From Candidatus Curtissbacteria bacterium RIFCSPLOWO2_12_FULL_41_16 (lineage in GTDB: Bacteria > Patescibacteriota > Microgenomatia > Curtissbacterales > GWA2-41-24): DNA of 64,000 nucleotides. Below the pieces are notes generated by a model. The model worked only from the letters and a program-made list of their open reading frames with translations, was not told the origin of the DNA and made no database searches. Below are positions 4,178 through 42,923 of the stretch, in pieces. The stretch's first letter is position 1, and every line of letters starts with the position of its first letter. Where the stretch lies: contig MFBZ01000022.1 in the NCBI GenBank assembly GCA_001776545.1, positions 14,065-78,064 on the forward strand, written 5' to 3'. Made by a program: the position numbers and the translations under genes.

Positions 4178-4232
4178 GAAACAATTGTAATTGTTAGATT
4201 GTTAGATTGCTATATTGTTAAATTGATTGAAA

Positions 4233-10977: not shown

Positions 10978-11556
10978 GAAATTTTGAGGCTCTTCTAAAC
11001 TAAGCCCAGGATGTTGTCGGAGAAAATTTTCCAGGGTTGCCGGCGCAAAATACCAAATTTCGACAATAGTTTTGTCGAATTGGCCGGCAAAGACTAAAAT
11101 ACCTGCTTGACCCCAAAAGTGTCCTGGCGCAAAAGTTCCGTGTTCGCCATAAAGTATTTTTTCTGATTGACCGTATTTTTGGATATAATTATCAAGGGTT
11201 CCCTTTTCATTGCCAATGACTTGTTCTTTGATAAGCGCAATTGTATTTTCTGTAAACTCGACCCGATGAGGTCTAAACTCTTGATTTGATCGGTACTTGT
11301 AGATTGTTTGTTCACCGCTTCCCTCGACTCCTTCTGGAGGACCAAGGATTGATTCGAGCTTTTCTTTAGTAGTTTTACCTGCATAAATATTCCCTTGCCA
11401 CGGAGTCCCCGTGGGACTTTCCGGCCCTTTATTTTTTGATGAGAACGAGAAAATTGCTAGCAGGAACATGCCGATGGAAAGAACTCCTAAAAGCAAGAGG
11501 ATCCATTCGGATTTTAGTATATTGGCAACTCGCGTCAAACTTAGTTTCTCCATCAA
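10957..11556 (-). CDS. Hypothetical N-terminally membrane-anchored protein
   Basis: 199 aa with a single N-terminal TM helix (ILLLLGVLSIGMFLLAIFSF). It is the first gene of the minus-strand T4SS-like block. No recognisable domain. Confidence 0.4.
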   Translation of the reverse strand: MMEKLSLTRVANILKSEWILLLLGVLSIGMFLLAIFSFSSKNKGPESPTGTPWQGNIYAGKTTKEKLESILGPPEGVEGSGEQTIYKYRSNQEFRPHRVEFTENTIALIKEQVIGNEKGTLDNYIQKYGQSEKILYGEHGTFAPGHFWGQAGILVFAGQFDKTIVEIWYFAPATLENFLRQHPGLSLEEPQNFLSNPKP

Positions 11557-14500
11557 TATTCAACTCCTCCAAAAATTTGGGTTTTGGCAAAGTTGTAATG
11601 GACAGGCCTATCATTTTTGAAAGTTGTCCACCCAGGCCCAGGGTTGACCCAAGCGCCACCTGGATAACCGGACCAAGATCTGGGGTTAAAGCTGTGGGTT
11701 TTTGAAACCACATAATCACTAATCATCTCGGCAAAAGACTCTGAGGCAACGCCCCAGGTTATTTCTTGAGGGGGGAAAGGATAGGTAGGCATCAAGCCCT
11801 CCTGGTTGTAAATACCTATAAAGTTGTTGTAGATGCCGGTATTGTAGTTACCAAGCACATGGCCCATCTCATGGATAATGACATATTTGGCAAAACTGGT
11901 TGGTGTCATATTACAGGCAACGGTGATTCTGTTGCCGCCGTTTACTGTTCCGCAGACCCCACTCCCAAGTGAGCCGTCAGAGACGCGAATTAAATAAATA
12001 GTGCCGGCGTTTTGGAGCAGAGAGACAGCCTGTGGTGATTGGTCTAAGTCTTTGCAGATTTCGTCGATGTTGTTATTCTCGGTGGAAGACCAAGGGCCTT
12101 GCCGCTCAATTATTCCGCAAATTGTTGGAGGGTTACCAATGACTACTGTGGCAGTTGTATTGCCGGTGATCGTGGGTTCGCTTTCGGGCGTAGCTGTGAC
12201 TGTGACAGTATTGGCAACGACCGAATCTGAGAAGTCATGTCCGGCTTGAGTGTCGGCAGTAATAGTAAATTGACAGCTCCAAGTTGCATTGGCAGCAAGC
12301 GTCTCAGGGATTGTATCTGCACAAGGCGGTGATATCAAATTACCATTTTTATCTTGAGTTACAGTAAAGTTGCCGTTTTTGGCTTGGACTTTTAATTCAT
12401 CGGTAATTTGCAGACCTGTGAGACCCTTTTCTTTGGCTGTTAGGGTTATAAAGAAAGTAATATCAGCGGGCAATTGGTTATTTTCCAGACGGTTAGGAGT
12501 TGCTGATTTGGTTACTGTAAAAAATGGTGTTTCCCCGGGTGGAGCAATTGCTGTTGGTAAGTCTGCTTCCGGATTAAAAAAGGTGGTGGCGGTGACAATG
12601 CCGATGATGGTGCCGCCAATGGCAACGGCGCTAATGCCGCCGACAACTGGAACTGCGGCAAGGGCCGTTGAGGGAGCAAGACCGGTCAAGCCGATGACAA
12701 AATTGGCAGCACCTGAGAGGAATCCGAGTGCGCCACCGGCCGCTGCGGTAATGCCGCCCCAAACGGTAGAAGCAGCGCCAGTAAAAAATCCGCCGATGGT
12801 ACCGATAATCCCGCTGGTTGTTCCTGTTGCTACACTGGTTGTGCCGGCGAAGAAGTTTTTGATTTGGATCAAGCCGCCGGCTGCCAGCCAGCCAATGCCA
12901 GCGCCAATCGCGGCGCCAATGGGGCCTCCTAAGATAAATCCGATAGCCGCGCCAGTGCCAATTGCTCCGATGGCGCTAAGAACATAATGACCAATAACGT
13001 AGCCAAGTGCGCCTCCGATGAAAGATCCGATATAAGCACCGGCAATGACACCAACGAAGGTTCCCAATGGACCGAAAGCACTGCCTAAGATTCCACCGAC
13101 GACTGCTCCGGTTGTGCCACCGACACCAACACCAATGCCGGCGGTGACGGCAGTTGGCGATCCGGTGAATAAACCCAGGGCAATTGCGCCACCAACTGTT
13201 CCACCAACTATCCCCCCAGTGAACATGCTTAGAGGGATGACTACGGGAGCGGCAAGTAGTCCAAACGGACCGAGGGCGACACAGATGCCAATACCGACTC
13301 CAAGACCGATGGTTGCCCCAATGGTTGCGCCGATTAGAAAACCTGTGAAAGCAGCCTGTCCTAGAGCTAGAAAGAAGAGTCCAAGGCCGCCTAAGACGGC
13401 GCCGGCAATATTTCTGATTTTGTGGCCGATCCCTAAGACTATGCCGGCTGGAGTGAAGCCGATAACACCAGCTGGGGCTATGCCCATGCCAAATGACGGC
13501 GCAAGGCTGGTGACTGAGAATCTAAAGCCGGGGTTTATCTTGCCAAAAAAGGAAAGACTTCCGGGGGCAATGGAGGTAAAAGCCGCGCGGGGGCCAAAAC
13601 AGGGGCTGTTGATAATGGTTTGTGGTCTAAAATAATCAAGTCGATACTCCCAAAAGGATTGGGCGCTGTAGGTTGCTTGAAGTAATGCTAGGCGATCTCT
13701 AAAAATATTGCGAAAGGCGGATGCCCTTTTGGGTTTTTTGAGGGCAAGTTCTTGGGCTTTTTGTAACTTGGCTAATTTGATCCGAGACGTTAGGTAAATT
13801 TTTCTTTCCCGATTGGTTAATGACATTTTCTTTTTAAAGTTTCCGGCCTCTAATGTTGTTTTTTTAAGTTCTCTGTTTAGCCACTCCTGATCATGAGCAA
13901 GAAGTGCCAGTTGGGCATCGGACAAATTTTTATCGGAGGATAGAACTAAGCCAGAACCGGTAGGGAGTCGGAACTTTTGTTCGGGTAAAACTTTTGGTGG
14001 TGCCAGTCTTAAATTGGTTGCTAGGGGAGCGGTTAAATTGCCATAGCCGATTTGTAGGCCTACTCTTTTGACACTCTCATTTTGAGAAATCGCTGTACCT
14101 ATTTTAGCTGTAGCTTTGTTGTGGGCGATTTCTTTGTATTTCTGAAGATCTTCAAATGAAGGAATTGTTGTTGGCGAAATCTTTGGAATCTGGCTTGCGA
14201 ATTCGTCAAGATAAGTAACAAGGTAAGTACCAAGACTTGCTTTGAGAATCTCTTGACTTTGGGGAGTAGCAAGAGGTGCGCTAGTTTCTATGATTTGTTT
14301 AACGTTATCTGAAATAGTGTTTAAAGTTTCTTGGGAAGGTTTTCTAAACGTACTGAGCTCTGTAAGTGATCCTAAAACTGCAGATTTTTCCAGTTGAGGC
14401 TTAAGTGATTCGGCGATTTGTGAGGTAATTGGTGTAACTTTTTGGATAAGTTTTTCTTCGTTGAGTTGAATTTCTGGGGGAAGAGTTTTATCTGGGTTTT

Positions 14501-15176
14501 TGGCAGGAAATGATTTGGAAATTGCTGGGCCTAGGTCTGGGTCTGCGATTAATGTTTGAATGACTGAGTCGGTGATGACATCTTGAGTTTGGGCAAGGTC
14601 GGCAATCTTGGGTATATTTTCAAGTGTTTCACGGGTTACTTCATTGGCGATTTCTTCGGAAATTTTGGCTAGTTGATCTTGAGGAATGTCTTTGATGCCT
14701 AAGGACGTGATAAGTGTTTGGACCTGAGGTGTTAATGCTGAAGTTAGCTTGACGGCCGTTTCTTGTTGATGTTTTCTTAATATTGGTTCGATGGCCTCAA
14801 GTTCGGCCAGAACTCCGAGCGCGGACGGACGACCTTTGGCGGCTTTGGCAGCGGTTAGATCTTCACCAGTGAGTCTTGGTACTGCCGACTCCCTTGGTGT
14901 TTCCAGTTTTTGTGATATTTCGTCGATGACCTCCTTGATTTTTTGTTGGTCGCCGACTATTTTTTGAAGATCAGTGGTTTTGAATCTGCTATAAATCCAG
15001 GTGTCGATTTCGTCCGCTGATATTAATTCCAAACCGGTGAATTGTTTCTGGAGCTCTTTTAAACCCGGTAGTTTTTTACCGTTGCCACGCTTAGGATCCA
15101 GTAAATAGTCGATCGACCAAGTTACGGCTTTGAGAAAGAGGGCGGTATCGAGTTTCGCGGCAGCTTCGGCAGGCAT
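11553..15176 (-). CDS. Giant membrane/surface protein with glycine-zipper segment and C-terminal HExxH zinc-metalloprotease motif
   Basis: 1207 aa. The N-terminal ~500 aa are charged and coiled. The central ~300 aa consist of (G/A)xxxG glycine-zipper TM repeats. The C-terminal part contains VIIHEMGHVLG (HExxH), encoded around 11860-11890 on the minus strand, plus Ig-like beta-rich regions. Confidence 0.6.
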   Translation of the reverse strand: MPAEAAAKLDTALFLKAVTWSIDYLLDPKRGNGKKLPGLKELQKQFTGLELISADEIDTWIYSRFKTTDLQKIVGDQQKIKEVIDEISQKLETPRESAVPRLTGEDLTAAKAAKGRPSALGVLAELEAIEPILRKHQQETAVKLTSALTPQVQTLITSLGIKDIPQDQLAKISEEIANEVTRETLENIPKIADLAQTQDVITDSVIQTLIADPDLGPAISKSFPAKNPDKTLPPEIQLNEEKLIQKVTPITSQIAESLKPQLEKSAVLGSLTELSTFRKPSQETLNTISDNVKQIIETSAPLATPQSQEILKASLGTYLVTYLDEFASQIPKISPTTIPSFEDLQKYKEIAHNKATAKIGTAISQNESVKRVGLQIGYGNLTAPLATNLRLAPPKVLPEQKFRLPTGSGLVLSSDKNLSDAQLALLAHDQEWLNRELKKTTLEAGNFKKKMSLTNRERKIYLTSRIKLAKLQKAQELALKKPKRASAFRNIFRDRLALLQATYSAQSFWEYRLDYFRPQTIINSPCFGPRAAFTSIAPGSLSFFGKINPGFRFSVTSLAPSFGMGIAPAGVIGFTPAGIVLGIGHKIRNIAGAVLGGLGLFFLALGQAAFTGFLIGATIGATIGLGVGIGICVALGPFGLLAAPVVIPLSMFTGGIVGGTVGGAIALGLFTGSPTAVTAGIGVGVGGTTGAVVGGILGSAFGPLGTFVGVIAGAYIGSFIGGALGYVIGHYVLSAIGAIGTGAAIGFILGGPIGAAIGAGIGWLAAGGLIQIKNFFAGTTSVATGTTSGIIGTIGGFFTGAASTVWGGITAAAGGALGFLSGAANFVIGLTGLAPSTALAAVPVVGGISAVAIGGTIIGIVTATTFFNPEADLPTAIAPPGETPFFTVTKSATPNRLENNQLPADITFFITLTAKEKGLTGLQITDELKVQAKNGNFTVTQDKNGNLISPPCADTIPETLAANATWSCQFTITADTQAGHDFSDSVVANTVTVTATPESEPTITGNTTATVVIGNPPTICGIIERQGPWSSTENNNIDEICKDLDQSPQAVSLLQNAGTIYLIRVSDGSLGSGVCGTVNGGNRITVACNMTPTSFAKYVIIHEMGHVLGNYNTGIYNNFIGIYNQEGLMPTYPFPPQEITWGVASESFAEMISDYVVSKTHSFNPRSWSGYPGGAWVNPGPGWTTFKNDRPVHYNFAKTQIFGGVEY

Positions 15177-15278
15177 ACTTTAAAGATATCATGAATTGTT
15201 AAATTGTTTTTCATCAATAGAGCAATTTAGCAATATAAGAGAGCTTGGTATCTCGTAAGCTCGATATAGTAATTGAAT

Positions 15279-17099
15279 CTAGAATTGTTTTAAAACGGCG
15301 GCCGATTTTTTCTGCATCTCCAGAAGCTCTTCGGGCTTGGTGGTTACTAAATAGTGTTCGTCTTCCGAGGCGACTATACGAATGGCGACATGGTTTGGTC
15401 CGGCAAAGAAGATGCCTTCACCAACGTCGGCTGCCAGAAGTAAGTGCTTTTCGCCTTCTGATAGATAAAAGACTTCGGCGATCTGATCGATGGCGGCTGG
15501 CGATTGTTTTAGGAGAATCTGGATTGAAGAATTAGTGACGATAGCCTTACCATAATCGGTTCTTAGAAAGTCGGTAACATCCTGAGTGATAGTGGTCAGA
15601 CCCAGATAATACTTTCTGGCCCTTTTGGCGATACTGTACATGAAGGTAGCGCTGTCAGGGTACTGCATCATATACCAGGCCTCATCGACAATGAGAAGGC
15701 GCTTTCTAATATTGTTTTTAATTCTGGTCCAGATAAAGTCTAAAATCAAATACATGGCAATTGGCCGCAGCTCATCCTCCATGTCTTTAATAGAAAAGAC
15801 AGTAAAAGTATTTTTAATGTCGATATTGCTTTGTTGGTTAAAAATGCCAACCAGCGAGCCTTTAACAAATTTCTCAATGCGATCGGCAAGACCGCGGGCG
15901 GCCTGATCTTCCATGCCAAGAAGTATTTTATAGAGATCTTCCATTAGAGGAGGTTCGTTTTTTTGAGTTGCCGGATCAGGGGTAATCCCTTTGGCTTTAT
16001 AGGTGGCAACTAAGGCTCGGTCTAAAAGAGCATCTTCAGTCGGAGTTAAATTGCCCATGATGACTTTGAAAAGTCCATGCAGAGAAAGAATTTTTAGACC
16101 AAGTTCATTTTCGCCTTCTTCATAAACACCGGAGAGGTCAAATGGATTGATTTTAGCGGGTGAGTTGAAATTAAAAGTAATATATTCCCCGCCGATTGCC
16201 TCACAAAGATTTTTATATTCTTCCTCCGGATCGATGACGATAATTTCAGTACCGAACATTAGGGAGCGAAGAGCTTCGAGCTTCACCAGATACGATTTGC
16301 CGGCACCGGATTTGGCAAAAATGACGGAATTGGCGTTTTCTAAAGAAAAGCGGTCAAAAATCACCAGAGAGCCGTTGTGTTCATTGATCCCATACATAAT
16401 GCCGGTATTTGAGGTTAGTGATGAGGAGATGAAAGGGAAAGTGGTCGCAAGGGAGGTGGTATCCATGTTGCGTGTAATATAGATATGGTCAGTGCCCTGC
16501 GGCAGGGTAGTTTTGAAAGCCTCTTCCTGCTGGAGAGTGGCATGTTTGGGGACTAAAAGCAGTGAGCCCAGGGTTGACTCTACTTGTTTGGTGATGGTAT
16601 CCAGTTCTTCACGACTGTCGGCAGGGATAGTGACATAGAGGGCAAACTGAAAGAAGCGTTCGGCTCCTTTGACTAATTCTTCTTGTAGAACCTGTGCATC
16701 TTCCAAAGCAGCTTGGACGGCCGGGTCGAGAACGCGGCCATGTTGGATATCGGTGGCGATGGTAGCTTCCATTTCGGTGATTTTGCGCTTGAGATCATCA
16801 AGAACTCCCTTTGCCTCGACCGGGTAAGAGTACATGGCAATTTCCAGAGTGTGTTCGAAATTAATTAAGGGAGCAAGCCAATTAGCCTGCACAAATCTGG
16901 GGTAGCCTACGACAAAAAGGGTCCTAAAATATGTTGAGCCAACTTTAATGAAGTCGAAATCGACTTCAATTGCCGGAGGCGCAATGATGTCTTTAACTGA
17001 GACGATGCCAGTCGCAAGTGTTTGAACCCACTGCTTCTGCTTATCGGAAAGCTGGGTCTCTCCTGTTTTTTTAGGCGCAAATGGGTTAAATATGCTCAT
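15279..17099 (-). CDS. VirB4/TraC/TrbE-family type IV secretion ATPase
   Basis: 606 aa with Walker A AKSGAGKS and Walker B LLIVDEAW. Size and motif order match VirB4-like conjugation ATPases. Confidence 0.8.
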   Translation of the reverse strand: MSIFNPFAPKKTGETQLSDKQKQWVQTLATGIVSVKDIIAPPAIEVDFDFIKVGSTYFRTLFVVGYPRFVQANWLAPLINFEHTLEIAMYSYPVEAKGVLDDLKRKITEMEATIATDIQHGRVLDPAVQAALEDAQVLQEELVKGAERFFQFALYVTIPADSREELDTITKQVESTLGSLLLVPKHATLQQEEAFKTTLPQGTDHIYITRNMDTTSLATTFPFISSSLTSNTGIMYGINEHNGSLVIFDRFSLENANSVIFAKSGAGKSYLVKLEALRSLMFGTEIIVIDPEEEYKNLCEAIGGEYITFNFNSPAKINPFDLSGVYEEGENELGLKILSLHGLFKVIMGNLTPTEDALLDRALVATYKAKGITPDPATQKNEPPLMEDLYKILLGMEDQAARGLADRIEKFVKGSLVGIFNQQSNIDIKNTFTVFSIKDMEDELRPIAMYLILDFIWTRIKNNIRKRLLIVDEAWYMMQYPDSATFMYSIAKRARKYYLGLTTITQDVTDFLRTDYGKAIVTNSSIQILLKQSPAAIDQIAEVFYLSEGEKHLLLAADVGEGIFFAGPNHVAIRIVASEDEHYLVTTKPEELLEMQKKSAAVLKQF

Positions 17100-18100
17100 A
17101 CCGTTTTTCTTGATTCCGACTGCACGTTGTCGGGAGTACCCACAATTGTGTCATTGGCATTTTGTTGCGGTCGGACGATTTGGGCAACCCTGGCGGTTGC
17201 CTCCTGAAGGTTTTTTAAAGCCTCTACTTGATTATCGGTCGCTGGTCTTTGAGGTACTGGTCTTAAATTTGGACCAGTTTCGTTAAGAGGGTAAGCAGCA
17301 GCCGGCTGGGTTGGTAGGGAAGTTGGGTAGGCACTAAAGGGTTGGTTCGCAGTAATTTGTGACTTGTCGTCTGCTATTTTTGACTGCTCAGTGGCGGGGA
17401 CCGGATTCGGGCCAGAAGGCGGCGGAGCCGGCGAGGGGATTTCAACGGCCGGTTCAACTATCGGGGTGGTGTATGAGGAGGTGTCCAGAAGAATTCTTTG
17501 GGTTCCGGTCGGCGCCGGGTTGTAGATATCGTAGAAAAGCTCGATTAATTCTTGGGTAGTTAATTGTCTGGCCGAAAGTCCTAACCTGGCCATTTGTTTG
17601 ATTAAATGATCACGTTTGGGCAAAAGCGCGATTTTGGCGTCGGCAATAAGCTGCGATTTACCGCCGCTTTTAGTTGGTTTTCTGCCAGTAATGTTTTTGA
17701 AACCGAGTTCAAGCGGGGAGAAGTTAATGATTAAATAAAATTTTTTATCAAGAACCGTTTTTTGCTGGACAGTCGACTCTATAAAATCCAGATATTTTTG
17801 GATTTGTCTTTTAAGATCAGGGTTTGGTTGGGCATGTTCGGCCTCGGAGAGGCTGGCAAAATACGAGGTAATGTCAGCTTTTTTGGAGCGAATAAGAACT
17901 TCTACCGGAAAGGTTAATGAGTTTAGAAGAGCACCATAGGCATAAATCGTGGCATCCTGTTCGGCTTCAGACAAGAGGTCAAAGTTAACGGCAGTTAAAG
18001 ATAAGACAAGAGCAACCCAACCGGTTTTTAAAATTACCAAGTCGTCTATAATATTCTCTATGTCTAAATGTTCTTGAGTAGAGGCTTTAGTTTTTGCCAT
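17096..18100 (-). CDS. Hypothetical protein with a Pro-rich C-terminus (T4SS-locus associated)
   Basis: 334 aa with a 4-bp start/stop overlap with virB4-like. The C-terminal third is Pro/Gln-rich and low-complexity. No assignable domain. Confidence 0.4.
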   Translation of the reverse strand: MAKTKASTQEHLDIENIIDDLVILKTGWVALVLSLTAVNFDLLSEAEQDATIYAYGALLNSLTFPVEVLIRSKKADITSYFASLSEAEHAQPNPDLKRQIQKYLDFIESTVQQKTVLDKKFYLIINFSPLELGFKNITGRKPTKSGGKSQLIADAKIALLPKRDHLIKQMARLGLSARQLTTQELIELFYDIYNPAPTGTQRILLDTSSYTTPIVEPAVEIPSPAPPPSGPNPVPATEQSKIADDKSQITANQPFSAYPTSLPTQPAAAYPLNETGPNLRPVPQRPATDNQVEALKNLQEATARVAQIVRPQQNANDTIVGTPDNVQSESRKTV

Positions 18101-18109
18101 ATATTAGTA

Positions 18110-19666: not shown

Positions 19667-19866
19667 GATTGCAATTGCTAGATTGTTACATTGCTAAATT
19701 GTTGAATTGTTTAAAAATAAGCAGAGCTTTTCTTCGAATAACAATCTAACAATGAAACAATATAACAATATCACCCTACCATATGAAACAAGGTGCGGAA
19801 AGTAGATCAAACAGCCTCAAAATAGGCAGATTTTCACAGATGGAGAGTTAGTGTGATTTGCTGGAA

Positions 19867-20510
19867 CTAGTGTTTTGCAAGCATTGAAAGTTGATATCTT
19901 TTGACTTCTGTGAAGATCTTATTCTTGGCTTTTTCCCAAGAGAAGTCCGCGTCAAGGACTTTAATCGACCTGGGATATTTTTCTTTTTCAGCATCCTCAA
20001 GATAGATTAGTGCGCGCAGAATGAGCATCAGTTGATAGCCAGGGTACTTTTTAATAGCGAAGTTAATAAGTTCTCCTAGCGTGTAGAAGTTGAGAAGATA
20101 ATAGATGTCTATAAAATCGCGCCTTGTGCCCCCTTGAATAATGGCAGCCAGTTTCATGGCGGCAACGTCAGCAAGACTAGCAATACTTATGTCTTGATAT
20201 TGTTTCAGAGGTTCAAGTAGTTGATACGAATAGTAAAAAAAGAAAGTTCTGTTTCGCCTATAATACTTTTTAAGGTATCTTCTGCCGTAAGTAGCGTTTT
20301 GGCATTTGGGAAAGTTTTTTTAATGTCTTTGGCAAGTCGAGGACTTGGGAATTTTTTTTGACTATAGAAGTCAAAGTCGATGGATGTCCGGTGACCAATC
20401 TGCAGTGCTAGTGCTGTGCCGCCGGCGAGATAGAAACCCGGGGCCTTTGGCAATTTCAGCTCTTTGACTATTGCAAGCTGATTTTTATTCAGAATGTGCG
20501 AATGCATCAA
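19867..20510 (-). pseudogene. AbiEii/AbiGii-like nucleotidyltransferase toxin, split by a frameshift
   Basis: Piece 20205..20510 carries GFYLAGGTALALQIGHRTSIDFDFYS (GGTAL...D.D nucleotidyltransferase motif). Piece 19867..20157 carries RRDFIDIYYLL and ALIYLEDAE, which are AbiEii C-terminal motifs. The two pieces lie in different frames. The downstream frame remains open upstream of its ATG and reads ...PLKQYQDISIASLADVAA. A T7 homopolymer (~20217-20224) lies just before the upstream stop at 20205. Confidence 0.45.
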
Positions 20511-20833
20511 ATTTTGAAAAGTTTTTTGTAGAGATTAAGATTTGCGTTAGGGTCCAGATTAATGTAGGCTAACTCTTGTTTAAACTTGGGAGCTTCAACA
20601 CCCAAAATTTTTTGCCAATAAAGCAGGCTTATTTTGTACCACATGCCCCTTCTTGGGTTTCGCAACACACGTCTAATGCCGTTGAGGCTGTAATTGTTAA
20701 ATAGCCATAAAACGGCTTTTTGATCACCGAGATTTAAAACTTGGGTGATGATAGTTTCCTTATGGCGTTTTTTCTCCATTTTTTTAATATCGTAAGACCA
20801 AAGATATGGTTGCAAAAAGTTAGGGAGAGCCAT
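20507..20833 (-). CDS. Putative cognate antitoxin/partner of the AbiE-like NTase (hypothetical)
   Basis: 108 aa. Its stop overlaps the NTase start by 4 bp (ATGA), the classic arrangement for a TA operon. No confident family assignment. Confidence 0.35.
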   Translation of the reverse strand: MALPNFLQPYLWSYDIKKMEKKRHKETIITQVLNLGDQKAVLWLFNNYSLNGIRRVLRNPRRGMWYKISLLYWQKILGVEAPKFKQELAYINLDPNANLNLYKKLFKI

Positions 20834-20970
20834 AAGTATAGTTTAGCATATTTTGAGCGTAATTCGCAGGGGCGGAAAGTAGATTTTTTTCACAAAACAG
20901 AATGCTGGGCCTTCCGAGTGTTCTAACTGATTCCTGCTATGGGCTAGAATTATGGTAAAATAGGGGCAAC

Positions 20971-24876: not shown

Positions 24877-24888
24877 TTCTCAACTTTT

Positions 24889-26409: not shown

Positions 26410-26510
26410 GCAGACTGAAAGGACTCCTTTTTGGGAAGGCTTAATTTAATAGTAGCACGTGGGGAAATACGCAACAAGTAACACGTAACAGGTGACAGGT
26501 GGCAGGGTGA

Positions 26511-27893
26511 TTAGCCACAGGTTGCTTCCATACCGCATTCGGGGCATTTTCTGACTCCGCTGCCGTAGCGGATAATATAGGTGCATTTTTCTTTCTTGTC
26601 TGTTTCGGGATCTACTTTCCAGCCTGGGCACTGAAAATCGCTTGTATCTTCATCTTCGTCATCGGTAAATGGAGCAAAATCCAAGACTGACTTAGCACCT
26701 ATGGCTCTTGCAAGTTGTTTGAGGAGTGGTGGTTGACTGACATTGAATCCTTTCTGACCGCCCGGACAACCCCGAGCGACGGGGCGAACAGGCTGTCTAC
26801 CGAAATGATTGATAAGATTATTAGTATTTTGAGGTCCGACCTCTGAGAATTCAAACTCTCTTTTGGAGGTCGGACCTCTTAAAAAACAAGTGGCATACGT
26901 GGTCTTTTTTTCTTCTCGGAGCTGTTTTTCAGTTAAGTCCGCCACATTATAGATGGCATTTAAGGTCAGTTTTATTTTTTCGATATCAAGAGGGTTTTCG
27001 ATTAAAGTTCGGATATAGGCAAGGATAAAGGGCGTACAGGCTTCAATGATCTGCTGGTTCACCTGATATTTTTGGGCCGATTTGTCAAAGCCAAAAACAG
27101 CCAAAATTTCCTCAAGAGATTTTTGGGATCTAATGGGAGTTTTTAAGAAGAAGGCCGCATTTAATCCTTCGGATGGGTCTCTAAATTGGGGACTAACAGC
27201 CTGGGCGGCTTTCAGAAAACTTTCAAGTGAATGTGTTGAGTGATATCTCGTCATATTTATTTTGCCCGACTTTTTTTGATAAACATCAAAAAGGTTTTCC
27301 GTGTAGAGGCTACCTTCGGGACTTTGTGGTGAGATGACAATGATTTTGGCTTCTTCCACCTCCGAGGAGCCAGGGCTCACCTCGGAGGTGTTGGTAAAGA
27401 GTTCTTGAATCTTGGCAATGCCTTCGACTTCTGCGGTTTCTCTTTCAGTTTCTGTACTGCCATTTGTGGTCAAGAACCTTCTGCCTTTTTCATATTCTTC
27501 AACGATTGGCCCCGGGTAATCTGGACTATAGAGCCTGCCATCCGTAACAATGAAGTATTCGATGGTACTTTTTTCGACGCCGAATCTTTCTCCTAATGCT
27601 TTTTCTATTTGACGTTTGGTGCGGTTATTGGTTTGGATTAATAATTGGGCGTATTCTTCGGGTGGAATTTTGCCGTTTAGACTCTTAAGATCCAGATAAT
27701 CTTGAATATCGTGGCGGGGATTGTAGCCCATGATGCCCTTGAATTCTTTGGGTATTTCCCAGAAAACGGGTTCTGCTTTTATTAAGACACCCCTGGGGTG
27801 TAAGGCTACTCCCACCCCAGGAGTGGACGTGAAAGGCGAGTCCACCTTGGAGGTGTCATGAGTGTGAGGGATAATGATTGTTCTTTCGGGCAC
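26511..27893 (-). CDS. Hypothetical protein with a C-terminal Cys cluster
   Basis: 460 aa. The C-terminus contains CPGG...CPGW...CPECGMEATCG (putative zinc ribbon). No other assignable domain. Confidence 0.4.
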   Translation of the reverse strand: MPERTIIIPHTHDTSKVDSPFTSTPGVGVALHPRGVLIKAEPVFWEIPKEFKGIMGYNPRHDIQDYLDLKSLNGKIPPEEYAQLLIQTNNRTKRQIEKALGERFGVEKSTIEYFIVTDGRLYSPDYPGPIVEEYEKGRRFLTTNGSTETERETAEVEGIAKIQELFTNTSEVSPGSSEVEEAKIIVISPQSPEGSLYTENLFDVYQKKSGKINMTRYHSTHSLESFLKAAQAVSPQFRDPSEGLNAAFFLKTPIRSQKSLEEILAVFGFDKSAQKYQVNQQIIEACTPFILAYIRTLIENPLDIEKIKLTLNAIYNVADLTEKQLREEKKTTYATCFLRGPTSKREFEFSEVGPQNTNNLINHFGRQPVRPVARGCPGGQKGFNVSQPPLLKQLARAIGAKSVLDFAPFTDDEDEDTSDFQCPGWKVDPETDKKEKCTYIIRYGSGVRKCPECGMEATCG

Positions 27894-28208
27894 AAAAAAA
27901 CCTCCGTGTGCCCGAGTAGGAGGTTAGTTGTGCTTCTTAGGCAACTATCCTGCTCGGGATTCGACTTCGCCATTGCGGTATTCGGACTCCTCACTGCGTT
28001 CGGAGTAAACTATTACTTTGTCTAGTTGCTAAACAATTGTTAACAACATTCGAAGTTAATAATTTATGTCGAACGTATGCGAGACACCGTTGCGGCACAG
28101 TGGGAGAGTTGCACTCCACTTCCCCGCAATGGGAATAAATTACTTAATTTACATTAGCATTTATGGCGAGTGGTAGCAAGAGGAATTTTGTTATAAAGGG
28201 ATTGTCTG

Positions 28209-29981
28209 TTAAGGCTGTTGACCACAGTCAATTTTAACACCGAGAGAATCCTGTAAGGCTTTGGGTTTGAGGGCCAAATCACGGACGATTTCTTTACCGC
28301 AATCGGTAGCGCCAATAAATCTTTTCTTGAGATCCTCATCTCCACTTTCAATTTGTTTGCCAGGTAAGCTTTTGGAAAGAAGATCGGGTAGGCAGTACTT
28401 GACTAAGCGCTCGGCATCACCTTGGGCGCATTCACTAGCAATCTTGCTAGTTTGATTGCAGGCTGCTTGGTTACCATCTTTACATCTTTGCACAAGACTG
28501 GCAAAGGTCGGCGGTAAGAAATAATCGCCGACCGCTTGAGGTGTAAAGAAACTATAAACCCCCGGCCTGCCGGTTTCTTGTAAAGACTGAGTTCCTGTTT
28601 CTGCCTGATCCGAGTAAAGGGTACTATTCCAAATTTCTGCAAGCCAGGGGACGCGAAAGACCGGCCAGATTTTTAGAGGTAAAAAGCAAGTGTACGTACC
28701 GTCGCCGTTATCGTCACAGTGATCAAATATCTTAGCTTTATTTTCTGGATCGATAGTAACTTCGCCTATCCAGGTAATATTAAAGGTACAAACTACGTTG
28801 GGATTATCCTGATCGAGTTTATTCTCGTCAGTTTTATTTTGACAAGTTTCACCAGGTAAAAGTTGATCAGCTGGTAAGGCACAATACTTCTCATTGCCTT
28901 CTTTGGCGGGCTTGGAGATTTTAAAACAGCCTGTCGGAGTAGTATCTGTTTGGGCAAAAGCGGTTTTGATAGGATTGGCCGAATCAAGAGAGATTTTAAT
29001 CACCCGCCGTAAGCTTTTGAGGAGAGCTTCTGGTGTTTGGTCAAGTAGCTTCTTACAGAGCGAGAGAGCTTTGGAAAGAATATTACCCGCATCAGCTTGT
29101 TGAGTGATAGTCCCGTGGTCTCGAAATGATTGGGCGGCATAAGGAACAATCATTTGATTAAGCTGATCAGAGGTGGCAGTGGTTCGCCAAAATTGGGGGA
29201 GGATAAATTCGATTACTCGAGGGAGCGATAAAAGACAAAGTTTGCCTGCCTCGAATTGTCTGATGGTTTCCTTGCCCACAGCTTGTTTAAATTCTAATTT
29301 ACCGACATAGAATTCGCTATAAGCTGTGGGGATTTTTTCCCAGTAGCGGCCCCAAGTGGCCAGCCATTGAGTTCTATCCTCATTGGCCTCGGGTGGGTCA
29401 GGGAGCCCAAATTCGCCAACCAGATCATAAATAGTTTTGGGATCACCCTTACCTTCAATATCTGTGTATTTATTGGTAGATTCGAGAAGTGTGGGTTTAT
29501 TGTAGACATACTCCACATATTTTTTTCTCAAGTCATCAATAAGGATTTTGGCAGAAGTCTTTTGGCCAGGCCCATGGAAAAGATTAAAATTTTGGCTGGA
29601 AAGATTGACAATGTTGGCTAGACGGTGGGCATCATCTTGGAATTTGCCCTCAAGGTAATTGGAATTGGTTGTGGAGAAAAGAGCTTGGAGATTGGAAAAA
29701 TCGACTGTAAAACTAAAAGATTGGGAAACGATGACATCCTCATCGCGTTTACCCTTAACTTGAATTGCTTGATCATCAGTGAATTTGATAGGCGCATCTC
29801 TATTTTCGTCGGTGATGTAATTGTCGGTTAATTTATCGGTTTCAACGGCATTTTCGCATGGTTGAGGATTAGGGGGGCCAGCGGCGCTTGCGCCGCTAGT
29901 GATAAGTGATAAGTGATAAGTGATAAGTAAAAAAAATACTATAAGAGAAATGCGAAAAGTGCTTATGATCATACTTTGCAC
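28209..29981 (-). CDS. Secreted cysteine-rich hypothetical protein
   Basis: 590 aa with an N-terminal signal peptide and about 20 Cys residues. The signal-peptide region is encoded by a (GTGATAA)4 repeat plus a T8 tract. Confidence 0.5.
   Translation of the reverse strand: MQSMIISTFRISLIVFFLLITYHLSLITSGASAAGPPNPQPCENAVETDKLTDNYITDENRDAPIKFTDDQAIQVKGKRDEDVIVSQSFSFTVDFSNLQALFSTTNSNYLEGKFQDDAHRLANIVNLSSQNFNLFHGPGQKTSAKILIDDLRKKYVEYVYNKPTLLESTNKYTDIEGKGDPKTIYDLVGEFGLPDPPEANEDRTQWLATWGRYWEKIPTAYSEFYVGKLEFKQAVGKETIRQFEAGKLCLLSLPRVIEFILPQFWRTTATSDQLNQMIVPYAAQSFRDHGTITQQADAGNILSKALSLCKKLLDQTPEALLKSLRRVIKISLDSANPIKTAFAQTDTTPTGCFKISKPAKEGNEKYCALPADQLLPGETCQNKTDENKLDQDNPNVVCTFNITWIGEVTIDPENKAKIFDHCDDNGDGTYTCFLPLKIWPVFRVPWLAEIWNSTLYSDQAETGTQSLQETGRPGVYSFFTPQAVGDYFLPPTFASLVQRCKDGNQAACNQTSKIASECAQGDAERLVKYCLPDLLSKSLPGKQIESGDEDLKKRFIGATDCGKEIVRDLALKPKALQDSLGVKIDCGQQP
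29882..29925. repeat. (GTGATAA)x4 heptanucleotide tandem repeat followed by an A8/T8 homopolymer, inside the signal-peptide coding region
   Basis: The plus strand reads agtgataagtgataagtgataagtgataagtaaaaaaaa. The minus-strand translation is FFLLITYHLSLITSG. Confidence 0.8.
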
Positions 29982-30029
29982 TTTGCACTTAGTACTTCTT
30001 TGAATCCGGGCAGCAGACTCATTCCTTAA

Positions 30030-30140
30030 GTATAATTGCTACATTGCTACATTGCTACATTGTTTGGTTAAGTTTCTAAATTAAATAATGATGATGTTTT
30101 TCTAAAACAATTTAACAATGGAACAATTTAACAATTTCTA
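30030..30140. repeat. Intergenic 8-bp-period tandem repeat (ATTGCTAC)x3 plus a CAATTTAACAAT cluster
   Basis: attgctacattgctacattgctacattg, then acaatttaacaatggaacaatttaacaattt. It belongs to the (ATTGYTAN)n family seen at nine or more intergenic sites. Confidence 0.7.
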
Positions 30141-30142
30141 TC

Positions 30143-30487
30143 TTACTTTGGTATTTCGACTGTGGTGACATCGACGCCGGTGAGGCCAGCGATTAACTTA
30201 AGGATAAGCCAAGAGGCCACAACTAAAATGATGCCAATGACAGCCATGGTGAGGGTACTACGGGCCTGGCCGGCGGCTTTAGGATCGCCGCCTGAGGTGA
30301 CAAACTGGAAGCCGCCAACCAAAAGCATTACAAAAAAAGCAATACCGGCCGCCGGGGCCAGAAGCTTAATGATTCTTTGAAGAATATCCACGACATCCAA
30401 AAGCTTGGCTGGTGGTGGATCAGTTTGGGCATAGACAGGCGAAACAAAAGCTGTCAAAAGCCCAACCAAAGTTAAGAAAATCCGCAT
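30143..30487 (-). CDS. T4SS pilin-like small membrane protein (paralog 1)
   Basis: Start trimmed to MRIFLT (ATG at 30485-30487). Signal peptide, a hydrophobic helix, a TSGGDPKAAGQAR motif and a second hydrophobic helix, resembling TrbC/VirB2-like and CPR T4SS pilins. Confidence 0.55.
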   Translation of the reverse strand: MRIFLTLVGLLTAFVSPVYAQTDPPPAKLLDVVDILQRIIKLLAPAAGIAFFVMLLVGGFQFVTSGGDPKAAGQARSTLTMAVIGIILVVASWLILKLIAGLTGVDVTTVEIPK

Positions 30488-30497
30488 GAGTTTCTGG

Positions 30498-30887
30498 TTA
30501 TGGTTCGACAGTAGGAATCGTAAACGTACCGCTGATAATGGTGACTCCGAAGAAAGTTTCCACCAATTTAATAATGGCAAAAGCAACCAAGACAATCACC
30601 AGACCAATTAACGCAGCAGTAATCGTATTTCTGGCACCCGCAACCGCTTTTTCGTCTCCACCCGCCAGAATCCAGCGGATGCCTCCCACCAGAAGCATAA
30701 TGAAAGCGATAATGAAGGCGACTACAAGGATAAACTGGATAATTGCCCGGATGATCTTAATAATATCCGCGTTTTTGCTAAGTTGTTCCGGTACAAGATT
30801 ATTCTGGGCAGCGGCTATGGTTGGGAATACAAGAGAACCGGTAAGAATCGCAAGCGGCCCCAGCAATCTTTTGGCATATTTAAACAT
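30498..30887 (-). CDS. T4SS pilin-like small membrane protein (paralog 2)
   Basis: 129 aa with the AGGDEKAVAGAR motif between two hydrophobic helices. Confidence 0.55.
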   Translation of the reverse strand: MFKYAKRLLGPLAILTGSLVFPTIAAAQNNLVPEQLSKNADIIKIIRAIIQFILVVAFIIAFIMLLVGGIRWILAGGDEKAVAGARNTITAALIGLVIVLVAFAIIKLVETFFGVTIISGTFTIPTVEP

Positions 30888-30914
30888 CAGATTCTTTTCA
30901 CCTCCCTTTTAGAT

Positions 30915-31319
30915 TTATCTTTGTGGCAGATTGAATTGGCCAGAGATGATTTGAACATTGAAAAAGGTTTCTACTAATTTGATTATAGCAAAAGCGCCGA
31001 CAACCACAACCAGTCCGATTAAGCCCCAGTAGATTTGGCCCCAGGCGGAAGCGATGGCTTTTTCGTCGCCGCCGGCGAAGATGAATCGGAGACCGGCAAA
31101 AATCATCCAGATGACACCGATGATGAAGGCTGCAATTACTAACAGGAAAATACCGTTCCTGATGAGGCTGGCAACAAAGCCTGAGGGGTTGGTTCCGGCA
31201 GAGGGAATTGAGGACGGGGCCGAGATTTTGCCGAGATCTTGGGCGAGGGCGAGTGAGGGAAGAATAAATAAACTGAAAAAAATTGCGAGGATGGTGATTA
31301 ATTGCTTCATTTTATTCAA
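30915..31319 (-). CDS. T4SS pilin-like small membrane protein (paralog 3)
   Basis: 134 aa with an AGGDEKAIASAW motif and the same architecture. Confidence 0.55.
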   Translation of the reverse strand: MNKMKQLITILAIFFSLFILPSLALAQDLGKISAPSSIPSAGTNPSGFVASLIRNGIFLLVIAAFIIGVIWMIFAGLRFIFAGGDEKAIASAWGQIYWGLIGLVVVVGAFAIIKLVETFFNVQIISGQFNLPQR

Positions 31320-31356
31320 ATAACAATTTAGCCATTTAGCAATTTAACAATTTGTA

Positions 31357-31656
31357 CTATGTTATCGGTACACTTGACCTTAAGAAATATTGGACTACTT
31401 GCAAAATGACAAAAGCCAAAATGGTAACCGTCAAACCAATAATAGCATAGGTTAAGGTTGCTTGGGCCGCAGCCAGTTTTTTTTGGTCTCCTGAGGCAGT
31501 GACGATTTTAATGCCGGAAATAATAATAAAAATAATGGCGATGGCGCCGGCGATGCTGGTTAGGATGAGAATGATGTCGCTGGCGAGAGCGCCGAAAGTT
31601 TCAAAGCGGGCTGGAGGGAAGATAGTTTTGTCAATTGTAAAAGCTAATTGGTTCAT
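31357..31656 (-). CDS. T4SS pilin-like small membrane protein (paralog 4)
   Basis: 99 aa with an ASGDQKKLAAAQ motif and the same architecture. Confidence 0.5.
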   Translation of the reverse strand: MNQLAFTIDKTIFPPARFETFGALASDIILILTSIAGAIAIIFIIISGIKIVTASGDQKKLAAAQATLTYAIIGLTVTILAFVILQVVQYFLRSSVPIT

Positions 31657-31829
31657 GGTTTCTTCCTTCGACCGACTAACGACTAAAGCCGTTCAATAAT
31701 TTTTAATTTTCAATTCACATTCAATTCTTAATGACTTAATTTTGAAATTTAGAAAATGAAAATTCATTGAAAATTGCAAATTGAAAATTACTAAAAGCGC
31801 TAGTCTTTAGTTGGTAGTCGTTAAGCATT

Positions 31830-32204
31830 TTAAACTACCCCACTGTTTCCTAAAAATATCTTGTCAACAATCTGCAAAATGGCAAAGGCCAGGATAATGA
31901 TCACGAAGCCGATGACGGCAAAGGTCAGCCGGCCGCGGGCGGCTGCTGCGGCTTCGGGATTGCCGCCGGAAGTAATAAATTGAATGCCGGAGATGATAAT
32001 GACAATGACGGTGATAAAGCCGGCAATACCCAGAACTACAGGCAAGAATTCGCTAATAATTTTGCCTATCAGTCCTTGTGCAGAAAACTTTTTTTCAACA
32101 TCTGACTTGGGTAAAGTGATTTGGGCAATTATCGCCGTCAGGCCCGTCGGCGCAAGAAGTTTTCTTAATTGATTTTGCATAGTTTTATCCAAAGGTAATT
32201 CCAA
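31830..32204 (-). CDS. T4SS pilin-like small membrane protein (paralog 5)
   Basis: 124 aa with a TSGGNPEAAAAARGR motif and the same architecture. Confidence 0.5.
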   Translation of the reverse strand: MELPLDKTMQNQLRKLLAPTGLTAIIAQITLPKSDVEKKFSAQGLIGKIISEFLPVVLGIAGFITVIVIIISGIQFITSGGNPEAAAAARGRLTFAVIGFVIIILAFAILQIVDKIFLGNSGVV

Positions 32205-33219
32205 GTATATTAAGACCGATAAATTTGAGTATCAAAACCGAGAATATCAAAAACAGCAGTCCGGCGACTGCTCCCACAATTATGTCGCGGCCGCCTGCCA
32301 GTTTTTGCTGGTCGCCGGAAGAAGTCAAGACACGGACTGAGCCGATAACCATTAGAATTAAGGCAATACCGCCGGCAAGGCCAATGGCAATGCCCAAGAT
32401 TTTGCCGGCAAAGGCTGTGGGGTTGGTGGGGATGTCTCCAAGGGCAGTTTCACAGACTCCTCCCGGACAGGGATTTTGGCCGGAAGTTCCGGTACTGGTG
32501 CCCCCACCAGGAGTTTTCCCTTCTTTGACAGTGATGGCTGGTAATTGATAACAAAATTCTGTTGTTGGAGGTATGGTATTAGGAGCAAAATAAAGTTTTA
32601 GGATATGATTGCCCTTTTTTAGTTTTCCGATATTTGCTTGCCACCCTCCTGGGCCAACTGGAGCACCTGCTGTTAAACTTTTAAAATCTTTATCATCAAT
32701 TTTGACACCAAATGATGCAGGATTTGTTCTCAAGGGATCAGAACCTGTAACAGGTTCAAAATATGCCGTAATATCGGTATCTTCATAAAATTCAGCTGGG
32801 CTATAGGCGTCAAACTGAGGACAAGCCCCAGCTCCGGTAGTTGCCTGGACAGTAAAGGTTGAGGAACATTCAATACTGCCATCTGGGCGCTGGAAATCGA
32901 AGGTATAGACGGCATTCACATCGAATGGTCCAACTGACCTTGAGAAATTGCCGTTCGCGTCTGTGGTAATCGGATCACTTATAACGACAAAACCAGGTCT
33001 TCTGACCACAAGCGTGTAAGATTTGTTGGCGAGTGCTGGGTTATTCGAAGTAAACGAAACAGTTGTCTGCTGAGTTGTAGAAATAAAATTGGGAGAAGCA
33101 CCACAACTCCCTACCGCCCTCGCGGTATTATTTAAACCTATAATGCTCCAAAGAAAAATGAGTATTACGAATGAAATAATGAAAGAAATCTTCTTGAAAT
33201 TAAAAATGTTCATCGTCAA
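32185..33219 (-). CDS. Pilin-like protein with an N-terminal beta-sandwich (Ig/adhesin-like) domain
   Basis: 344 aa with a signal peptide and a ~250-aa beta-rich domain. The C-terminus carries the pilin module (TSSGDQQKLAGGRD) flanked by hydrophobic helices. Confidence 0.5.
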   Translation of the reverse strand: MTMNIFNFKKISFIISFVILIFLWSIIGLNNTARAVGSCGASPNFISTTQQTTVSFTSNNPALANKSYTLVVRRPGFVVISDPITTDANGNFSRSVGPFDVNAVYTFDFQRPDGSIECSSTFTVQATTGAGACPQFDAYSPAEFYEDTDITAYFEPVTGSDPLRTNPASFGVKIDDKDFKSLTAGAPVGPGGWQANIGKLKKGNHILKLYFAPNTIPPTTEFCYQLPAITVKEGKTPGGGTSTGTSGQNPCPGGVCETALGDIPTNPTAFAGKILGIAIGLAGGIALILMVIGSVRVLTSSGDQQKLAGGRDIIVGAVAGLLFLIFSVLILKFIGLNILGITFG

Positions 33220-33451
33220 TTTCAGTGTAGCATTAGATAGATAAATTGTTAAATTGTTACATTGCTAAATTGCCGAGTTGGCTATTTGAAGATTTCGGTT
33301 TCGAGAGATTTGGCAAAGGCTTACTTTTTCTCTTGGATATTGTTTTTTCAATTTTTCGTAGTTATTGCTCCCATATATGAATGTGTATGAATGTGTGAAT
33401 CATATCAAGAATCTAGTTTAACACAAAATTAGGCCATGGTATTAAATTGTG

Positions 33452-34027: not shown

Positions 34028-34312
34028 AGAGCAATAGTAACACAAATTTAGGCCATGGCATATTTTTGTGTTATTCTTTGATTCATTATTTAATGGGTTT
34101 ATGAGATAATAGAGTCTAATAAACTTCCGAGGGCACTAAAGCCCTCGGTATTGTTCTTTAAGTTTACATGAGCGCAGAAAACCACCAACGTTTGAGATTT
34201 TTATCCCTCGGAAGTATGTATTCGCTTTTTTGCATTCATCCCCGCCTAAATATTCAATTTTTGGCGGGGATATCTAGCAAGCGAATATAAAATTGAGTCT
34301 TTAGCCAACTTT

Positions 34313-42915: not shown

Positions 42916-42923
42916 CTTGATTA

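Follow-up and report, generated by a model that had tools for sequence, protein, structure and literature searches.

The 64-kb stretch of DNA analysed here (the window), from a Candidatus Curtissbacteria genome of the class Microgenomatia, very probably carries a type IV secretion system (T4SS) and pilus cluster of the Patescibacteria type. The locus occupies positions 10957-33219, where all the substantial open reading frames (ORFs) lie on the minus strand with the sole exception of a 1301-aa ORF (Table 1). An original prediction had read 11553-33219 as a T4SS-like cluster of about 21 kb, nearly all on the minus strand, and the components lie where it placed them; it had also proposed a minimal system of the candidate phyla radiation/Patescibacteria kind with neither relaxase nor coupling protein, and VirB4, PrgI and four pilins indeed score above thresholds. 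Its description of the system as “poorly described” is out of date, as can be seen from three publications (PMC10633639, PMC12102498, and PMC12857230). Taken as a whole, the best explanation, held with good confidence, is that the locus is the Microgenomatia copy of the Patescibacteria T4SS, for which a mechanism is proposed below. The system is a known one and this genome copy was catalogued in 2023-2025, an assembly carrying the locus being scored as Microgenomatia and VirB4-positive in Table S1 of the 2025 paper (PMC12102498); the new detail is incremental.

The energising subunit is a 606-aa VirB4-family ATPase. It passes the NCBIfam model NF045971 (“VirB4-like conjugal transfer ATPase, CD1110 family”) with 397.7 bits against a cutoff of 325, is matched by the Pfam families P-loop_TraG (PF19044, 1.9e-29) and AAA_10 (6e-12), and finds in the PDB both the solved VirB4 ATPase domain 4ag5 (2.5e-50) and TrwK of R388 (2.6e-5). 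The Walker A and Walker B motifs noted in the original prediction are present as AKSGAGKS at residue 262 and LLIVDE at residue 468. An identical VirB4 is encoded on contigs of Candidatus Curtissbacteria metagenome-assembled genomes from the Rifle aquifer (e.g., GCA_001776395.1), and the nearest homologs, at 83-100% identity, all belong to Curtissbacteria, Microgenomates, or Patescibacteria. Over more than 120 homolog clusters (clustered at 90% identity), VirB4 is 83-92% identical and therefore behaves as a core gene.

Between prgI and virB4 lies a 334-aa ORF, left unnamed in the original prediction, which is TrsD-like. It aligns with positions 10-200 of the 201 positions of the TrsD/TraD model NF041427 (6.9e-8) but with 32.5 bits against a cutoff of 200, and a precomputed match to the TraC-like family PF26593 is weak. 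The long mycoplasma VirB4 model NF045975 is covered by the TrsD-like protein at positions 99-234 and by the 606-aa VirB4 at positions 274-886, and this split coverage suggests that the N-terminal region of VirB4 is here a separate TrsD-like gene, as in Gram-positive systems of the pGO1 type. The TrsD-like protein would thus be homologous to the N-terminal part of long VirB4 proteins, a relationship visible via profiles only, as BLASTP of TrsD against the VirB4 N-terminus gave nothing significant. Together, prgI, the trsD-like gene, and virB4 form an energising module in which the genes overlap or are closely packed. The gene adjoins virB4 in 31 related loci, and TrsD is given in PMC12102498 as the most abundant accessory component of the Patescibacteria T4SS.

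The third protein, of 518 aa, is PrgI/VirB3-like, with 38 bits for PF12666 against a gathering score of 27. Since this match covers only residues 5-90, the extension of about 400 aa that had been described beyond the PrgI module is real. Two N-terminal transmembrane (TM) helices (TM-like segments 21-73) are followed by a Pro-rich linker, and the last part of the protein, of about 85 aa, is a beta-sandwich-like domain; CarboxypepD_reg matches the C-terminus at residues 435-493 (8.4e-5, under the gathering score). Both the N- and C-terminal parts are conserved across Microgenomatia.

The 506-aa protein, with a signal/TM segment and about five hydrophobic helices, has no match in Pfam or NCBIfam, and its family profile found nothing among the PDB sequences. 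None of its 559 homologs carries a Pfam domain, and Pfam run on 30 of them touched TrbL in a single case (E 0.01). By structure, VirB6 is its top match with two methods. In a Foldseek comparison of an AlphaFold2 model (built from 30 sequences; predicted local distance difference test score, pLDDT, 70.9) with the PDB, ranks 1-4 and 14 were TrwI/VirB6 chains of the R388 T4SS (best E 6.2e-3, probability 1.00), and the other matches were low-probability noise from G-protein-coupled receptors. “VirB6-like” is the best reading, with moderate confidence. The original prediction had listed a VirB6/TrbL-like polytopic protein in the locus; the VirB6 nature of the 506-aa protein emerges via structure comparison only. 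In PMC12102498, VirB6 homologs are reported to be scarce in Microgenomatia and extreme divergence is suspected; a VirB6 visible by structure only may explain this scarcity.

The pilin array lies 13-16 kb from virB4 in the same cluster. PF18895 (T4SS_pilin) matches six ORFs between 30143 and 33219, of which five are short and the sixth, of 344 aa, is matched at its C-terminus; four of the six are above the gathering score, and all six share the layout of a TM helix, an SGGD.K loop, and a second TM helix, which agrees with the six-gene pilin array first proposed. The 134-aa pilin aligns with the remaining ones, and the pilin at the downstream end of the array has a signal peptide and two TM helices. 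The first gene of the array encodes a large pilin, in which a signal peptide precedes an extracellular domain of about 260 aa that contains Cys, and the pilin module forms the C-terminus (TM segments 3-33, 268-302, and 307-344). A pilin module occurs in the first array gene in 37 loci, and the 344-aa protein is a candidate tip or adhesin pilin.

The pilin paralogs of the window are 26-45% identical to one another, whereas same-position orthologs in other Curtissbacteria are about 47-80% identical, and the array order 344-124-99-134-129-150 (lengths in aa) is retained in six related loci (L004, L005, L012, L013, L017, and L026). The higher identity of the orthologs and the kept order indicate that the paralogs predate the group and have been individually maintained. 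This favours distinct structural roles (major, minor, and tip pilin) over a recent amplification for (antigenic) variation. Microgenomatia are reported to have, commonly, between 2 and 11 pilins in such arrays (PMC12102498), and Southlakia epibionticum has six divergent pilins that are essential (PMC10633639; reviewed in PMC12857230).

The setting of the locus is chromosomal. dnaN is 0.9 kb and dnaA (7832-9190) 2.4 kb from the locus end, with rnpA, yidD, and yidC farther out, and the window also contains a tmRNA gene, dnaG, and rpoD; the DNA is therefore chromosome rather than plasmid. Scans with Pfam and NCBIfam of the locus ORFs and of all window ORFs of at least 400 aa gave no match to relaxase, type IV coupling protein (T4CP)/VirD4, VirB11, PilB/PilT/PilC, or FtsK families, which bears out the reported absence of VirD4, VirB11, and relaxase. 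The two outcomes that the original prediction had named as speaking against itself were also looked for: VirB4 did not fail its profiles, and neither PilB/PilT/PilC nor FtsK was a best match. The same two databases gave no integrase with att sites and no plasmid replicon in the 64 kb. No direct repeats bracketing the locus were found, its GC content is about that of the flanks, a Gly-rich block excepted, and a promoter/terminator scan of the locus gave a signal only at chance level. GC skew is above 0 in all the 2-kb bins of the window and keeps its sign around dnaA; were the plus strand the leading one, nearly the whole T4SS locus would be head-on to replication and the 1301-aa gene co-directional.

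The order of the genes was compared in 80 related loci, obtained by scanning species-representative genomes with an alignment of the VirB6-like protein and mapped by tblastn and ORFs (labels beginning with L denote these loci). They span Curtiss-, Shapiro-, Woese-, Pace-, Beckwith-, Chisholm-, and Blackburnbacteria. In Curtissbacteria, the order is a SpoIID-like gene (opposite strand), the large pilin, five small pilins, the 590-aa, 460-aa, and VirB6-like genes, the giant gene (opposite strand), PrgI, TrsD, VirB4, and the large Gly-zipper protein. Beyond Curtissbacteria, the order is a pilin array, a large ORF, the VirB6-like gene, a convergent large gene, the PrgI-TrsD-VirB4 block, and a large gene, and distant Microgenomatia have the same gene order beside dnaN/dnaA. 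Two Curtissbacteria-like loci (L016, 15981-20464; L024, 14903-19403) have the PrgI-TrsD-VirB4 block inverted relative to the VirB6-like gene; in both, virB4 is then followed by a same-strand homolog of the giant 1301-aa gene, an adjacency that survives the rearrangement. The titles of the loci (L003-L082) are often “uncultured Gammaproteobacteria”, “Pseudomonadales”, “Clostridia”, “Bathyarchaeia”, or “TM6”; judged from gene content, these labels look like placeholders or errors.

The position next to dnaN, dnaA, rnpA, and yidC, the conserved VirB4, and the order kept in 80 loci characterise a fixed core system rather than a mobile element. The hallmarks given for the Patescibacteria T4SS in PMC12102498 are VirB4, TrsD, PrgI/VirB3, VirB6, an array of VirB2-like pilins, no relaxase, and a position adjacent to dnaA/dnaN, together with a VirB4 from the monophyletic Patescibacteria clade of the VirB4 tree. 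VirB4, PrgI/VirB3, the pilin array, the missing relaxase, and the position are seen in this locus, while TrsD has a candidate that scores under the cutoff and VirB6 a candidate recognised by structure.

Table 1. Features of the T4SS locus and of its surroundings, in window coordinates
Feature	Coordinates	Strand	Evidence or remark
Bitopic membrane protein, 199 aa	10957..11556	-	One N-terminal TM segment; overlaps the end of the 1207-aa gene by 4 bp
Membrane protein, 1207 aa, proposed VirB1-like wall hydrolase	11553..15176	-	Directly downstream of virB4; HEMGH; slot homologs
VirB4-family ATPase, 606 aa	15279..17099	-	NF045971, Pfam, PDB 4ag5, Walker motifs
TrsD/TraD-like protein, 334 aa	17096..18100	-	NF041427 sub-cutoff; stop overlaps virB4 start by 4 bp
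PrgI/VirB3-like membrane protein, 518 aa	18110..19666	-	PF12666; two N-terminal TM helices
DUF6922 gene and AbiEii nucleotidyltransferase toxin	19867-20833	-	Between giant gene and prgI
Acidic protein, 1301 aa	20971..24876	+	Convergent with VirB6-like gene; conserved slot, hypervariable sequence
VirB6-like polytopic protein, 506 aa	24889..26409	-	Structure comparison
Protein with C-terminal Cys-rich, zinc-ribbon-like tail, 460 aa	26511..27893	-	Directly upstream of VirB6-like gene; 8 Cys, no TM segments
Secreted Cys-rich protein, 590 aa	28209..29981	-	Between pilin array and VirB6-like gene; N-terminal signal-like segment, 15 Cys
VirB2-like pilin, likely start Met37 of a 150-aa ORF beginning at 30595	30143..30487	-	PF18895 1.6e-11; positional orthologs 49-69% identical
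VirB2-like pilin, 129 aa	30498..30887	-	PF18895 2.2e-7; same-position orthologs 55-74% identical
VirB2-like pilin, 134 aa	30915..31319	-	PF18895 1.8e-4 and TrbC/VirB2 1.4e-4, both under gathering score; orthologs 48-64% identical
VirB2-like pilin, 99 aa	31357..31656	-	PF18895 1.4e-8; no obvious signal peptide; orthologs 58-67% identical
VirB2-like pilin, 124 aa	31830..32204	-	PF18895 6.8e-9; orthologs 50-80% identical
Large pilin, 344 aa, first array gene	32185..33219	-	PF18895 6.8e-4 (under gathering score), residues 268-333
PaaX_M/Cas2-like protein, 197 aa	33452-34045	-	N-terminal hydrophobic segment; with flanking repeats 33419-34073
SpoIID-like protein, 546 aa	34313..35953	+	PF08486 SpoIID 1.9e-11; divergent from pilin array
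Large serine recombinase	43229-44611	-	Resolvase, Recombinase, and Zn_ribbon_recom domains; directly after two tRNA-Ser genes (42832-43012)
AATTGYTA arrays	4190-4229, 15191-15234, 19674-19769, 30035-30135, 31320-31351, 33237-33276, 50463-50502, 61197-61289		Tandem 8-bp unit

The 1207-aa product of the gene that follows virB4 begins with a soluble part, continues with a Gly-zipper TM block (about 565-867) and a beta-sandwich domain, and ends in a zinc-peptidase-like domain with HEMGH at residue 1102, much as the giant glycine-zipper protein with HEMGH had been described, and the conserved motifs are HE[ML][GS]H..GN.N and ESF.E..SD. Pfam and NCBIfam recognised no wall-hydrolase domain in it (SLT, CHAP, LytM/M23, or muramidase), the HEMGH domain is unclassified, and a comparison with the PDB sequences found nothing. 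A model of the C-terminus from 7 sequences was poor (pLDDT 60.8), and Foldseek gave a generic beta-sandwich and weak matches to M1 aminopeptidases (gluzincins), so that no peptidase clan is assigned. Among its few detectable homologs, three (P0243-P0245) keep the TM block and the beta-sandwich and have a Peptidase_M23 C-terminus, and another (P0242) consists of the HEMGH domain on its own, as a secreted protein. Elsewhere in the Microgenomatia, the gene after virB4 has a CHAP end in two loci (L051 and L060) and M23 in one (L027), and two others showed no domain there. The earlier claim that the neighbouring genes have no characterised homologs must therefore be amended for the HEMGH protein, which belongs to a modular family with M23 and CHAP members.

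CHAP and LytM/M23 are domains of the VirB1-like hydrolases in Gram-positive T4SSs (PMC12857230), and in S. epibionticum, a peptidase and a lysozyme encoded just downstream of virB4 are essential (PMC12102498). Because some of its homologs and some genes in the same slot end in M23 or CHAP, the 1207-aa protein likely opens the wall as a VirB1-like enzyme would, but by means of another catalytic head, one that lies outside the known hydrolase families. The neighbouring 199-aa gene is possibly in the same operon. Its product has no Pfam, NCBIfam, or PDB match; in two loci (L033 and L060), small bitopic ORFs follow the hydrolase-slot gene, without significant similarity to the 199-aa protein. That this protein is VirB8-like is only an idea.

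A candidate for a second wall enzyme is found at the other end of the locus, outside the coordinates of the original prediction. The SpoIID-like protein has an N-terminal hydrophobic segment, and in 25 of the 37 loci with a large first pilin, such a gene lies on the opposite strand 0.4-1.8 kb upstream of that pilin; it is a candidate peptidoglycan lytic transglycosylase tied to the system.

A mechanism can be proposed from these parts. VirB4, anchored by PrgI and TrsD, would power assembly on a VirB6 platform, and the product would be a short pilus or conduit made of several non-redundant pilins. The membrane-anchored HEMGH peptidase would locally open the peptidoglycan, that of the cell or that of its host, like the VirB1-like enzymes of Gram-positive T4SSs, and the SpoIID-like enzyme by the pilin array may contribute. 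Such a machine would serve contact and macromolecule exchange with a host cell, not conjugation. In S. epibionticum, epibiotic growth requires the homologous cluster with its pilin array, which comes with no coupling protein or relaxase (PMC10633639). Because the argument is one of analogy with this species, a host-interaction or conduit function is put at even chances.

Several points weigh against the interpretation as a Patescibacteria T4SS with this mechanism. The TrsD-like protein and two of the pilins score under curated cutoffs. Known hydrolase families do not include the HEMGH domain, and the wall-hydrolase role is suggested by position and domain swapping. The sequence indicates neither the cargo transported nor the direction of transport. 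There are no cultivated Curtissbacteria, so essentiality and host dependence are extrapolated from relatives. Finally, the analysis covers 64 kb, and the rest of the genome could still encode a T4CP or relaxase; most Patescibacteria T4CP homologs are indeed far from virB4, according to PMC12102498.

Another possibility is a DNA-uptake machine, that is, an importing T4SS of the ComB or Ced kind, which would bring in nucleotides or DNA that the cell cannot produce itself. Patescibacteria have no nucleotide synthesis (PMC12857230), relaxase and T4CP are absent here as they are from import systems, and a 2026 preprint ties host-RNA feeding to possible T4SS pili. The similarity of VirB4 to the archaeal DNA importers CedB (6.6e-12) and CedD (8.9e-7), the only direct sign of import, is weak, however, far under the cutoffs and tiny next to the score of the VirB4 conjugation model. 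Moreover, Pfam and NCBIfam recognised no DNA-binding or nuclease component in the locus, and in S. epibionticum, competence needs type IV pili and ComEC, the loss of comEC leaving viability unaffected, whereas the T4SS is essential (PMC12857230). Import is an unlikely explanation.

The reading that the locus is a degraded integrative and conjugative element (ICE), or the transfer module of some mobile element that landed in the chromosome, is still much less probable. The best curated match of VirB4 is a conjugation ATPase family of Gram-positive ICEs, a frameshifted AbiEii/DUF6922 toxin-antitoxin remnant, which is typical mobile cargo, sits within the locus, and a serine recombinase lies by two tRNA-Ser genes about 10 kb past it. 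Yet the locus has no recognised relaxase, T4CP, or integrase and no bracketing direct repeats, its GC content is similar to that of the flanks apart from the Gly-rich block, and the same order is found beside dnaN/dnaA in distant Microgenomatia. VirB4 evolves like a core gene, and its clades are vertical and class-specific (PMC12102498). The ICE reading was rejected for the lack of DNA-processing genes and of bracketing repeats and because synteny near the origin is conserved. A row of many small hydrophobic “pilin” genes with one secretion ATPase might also suggest a type IV pilus, a type II secretion system, or a Tad-like system instead of a T4SS. This is refuted by the profile results and has a negligible probability, as the ATPase passes the VirB4 model and matches VirB4 structures rather than PilB/PilT/GspE, the locus has no PilC/GspF-like platform protein or prepilin peptidase, and the pilins form VirB2/TrbC-type hairpins of two helices (PF18895 and PF04956), their signal peptides being of the Sec type and lacking the class III G/FTLxE motif.

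The Patescibacteria T4SS is the preferred reading. Three more proteins of the locus belong to no recognised family. The Cys-rich secreted protein of 590 aa, whose signal-like N-terminus and 15 Cys agree with the earlier description, has no Pfam, NCBIfam, or PDB match. Homologs about 30-44% identical to it occupy this position in 17 loci, of which almost all are Curtissbacteria-like, and in other Microgenomatia a large ORF (500-1000 aa) fills the slot; the 590-aa protein may be an extracellular component or one associated with the pilus. One such large ORF, from a Shapirobacteria locus (L051, 7385-9814, plus strand), has a GH5 cellulase-like domain (4.7e-7), which hints that the slot can hold polysaccharide-active proteins. 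The 460-aa protein, present in 19 loci, likewise has no Pfam, NCBIfam, or PDB match.

The third is the giant 1301-aa protein of the opposite strand, for which the original prediction had stated that there were no characterised homologs; it indeed has no Pfam, NCBIfam, or PDB match, either singly or as a family profile. It has no TM segment, signal peptide, or Walker A motif, and its net charge is -25. An exhaustive HMMER search of 1.84 billion representative proteins found 96 representative clusters only, all of similar size. Its gene is the fastest-evolving in the locus, with 21-35% identity within Curtissbacteria. The slot itself is constant: the ORF after the VirB6-like gene is convergent in all 70 loci that have one, with a median length of about 1000 aa. 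The proteins in this slot form at least 8 BLAST clusters, nine representatives had no Pfam domain, and hhalign of the 1301-aa family against the positional analogs of five other lineages gave probabilities below 1%. It is conceivable, if rather improbable, that this slot protein is a dedicated fast-evolving substrate/effector or host-specificity factor; the T4SS would then be a protein translocator of cluster-encoded cargo that co-evolves with the host, and the interchangeable CHAP, M23, or HExxH head of the hydrolase could be tuned to the wall chemistry of the host instead of that of the producing cell.

The window also contains tandem arrays of the 8-bp unit AATTGYTA, with 3.5-5 copies in each of 11 arrays, all intergenic; the pattern has 28 matches where chance would give 0.13. 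Of the 11 arrays, seven are at T4SS gene junctions, upstream of the starts of the 1207-aa gene, prgI, the 590-aa gene, and the 134-aa and 344-aa pilins. Inverted pairs fold into long hairpins on the mRNA-sense strand. The hairpin upstream of prgI (folding free energy, dG, -31.7; z -4.5) ends 6 nt before the AUG, and that between the 150-aa pilin and the 590-aa gene has a z of -3.2. The unit is present in only 9 of the 80 related loci and could be a REP-like (repetitive extragenic palindromic) element, a terminator/attenuator, or a regulator-binding array.

Some other genes may be additions to the region. Between the giant gene and prgI, DUF6922 (20507-20833) is followed by an AbiEii toxin, neither of which was named in the original prediction; the toxin is in two ORFs (20205-20510 and 19867-20157), and since these are in different frames, it looks frameshifted. 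The pair appears to be an inserted toxin-antitoxin remnant and not a part of the machine. The PaaX_M/Cas2-like gene is flanked by direct repeats of 36 nt (33419-33454 and 34038-34073), internally palindromic and 83% identical; as its only homolog among the related loci is in L026, a small insertion at this site, with the pilin array on one side and the SpoIID-like gene on the other, is possible. Past the serine recombinase are genes without Pfam matches and a streptomycin adenylyltransferase-like gene (46744-47553), and this region may be an integrated element unrelated to the T4SS.

The Patescibacteria T4SS is a much-discussed and unexplained secretion machine, essential in the one species tested and with a pilus-like array in a monoderm. 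The window does not reveal a new kind of system; it offers a clean Microgenomatia example with a fuller parts list. What it adds is a VirB6-like protein seen by structure only, a hydrolase slot with a swappable head, a SpoIID-like partner, pilins in conserved order, and a universal convergent slot for an orphan giant. These parts give structure prediction, and genetic work in relatives that can be cultivated, concrete targets.

Compared with the MPF-T systems (mating-pair formation type T) of R388 Trw and A. tumefaciens VirB, the locus shares VirB2-type pilins, VirB3, VirB4, and probably VirB6, and TrwI/VirB6 of R388 is the best structural match of the 506-aa protein. In contrast to these systems, VirB5, the VirB7/9/10 outer-membrane complex, VirB8, VirB11, and VirD4 are not recognised in the locus, VirB4 is apparently split into a TrsD-like protein and the ATPase, and there are multiple pilin paralogs. 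The resemblance to the MPF-FATA systems (pGO1/pSK41 Trs, pIP501 Tra, pCF10 Prg, and the C. difficile CTn) lies in the probable triplet VirB3-like (PrgI/TrsC)-TrsD/TraD-VirB4 (TrsE/TraE), a VirB6-like polytopic protein, a wall hydrolase in the operon (PrgK or TraG, with LytM, SLT, or CHAP), and no outer-membrane core. Unlike the locus, the MPF-FATA systems have a relaxase and a T4CP, are borne on plasmids or ICEs, and rely on surface adhesins in place of VirB2 pilins, which they do not have, whereas the locus has six pilins, no DNA-processing genes, and a fixed chromosomal site. The Patescibacteria T4SS lineage is derived from this monoderm MPF-FATA conjugation machinery.

With respect to the Patescibacteria T4SSs themselves (Quinonero-Coronel, 2025, PMC12102498; Wang, 2023, PMC10633639, SEML1_0006-0019), the hydrolase slot is here occupied by an unclassified HExxH domain and not by CHAP, M23, or lysozyme, and the portions read of these two papers make no mention of the convergent giant gene, the Cys-rich secreted protein, or the Zn-ribbon protein. 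For Microgenomatia, the former has VirB6 as scarce and VirB3 as mostly unlinked to virB4, whereas here VirB3 and a VirB6-like protein, recognisable by structure only, are present and linked. What is shared with these systems is VirB4 with an adjacent TrsD-like protein and PrgI/VirB3, a VirB6-like protein, six divergent VirB2-like pilins, a peptidase gene right after virB4, no relaxase or coupling protein nearby, a chromosomal site by dnaA/dnaN, and a patescibacterial host.

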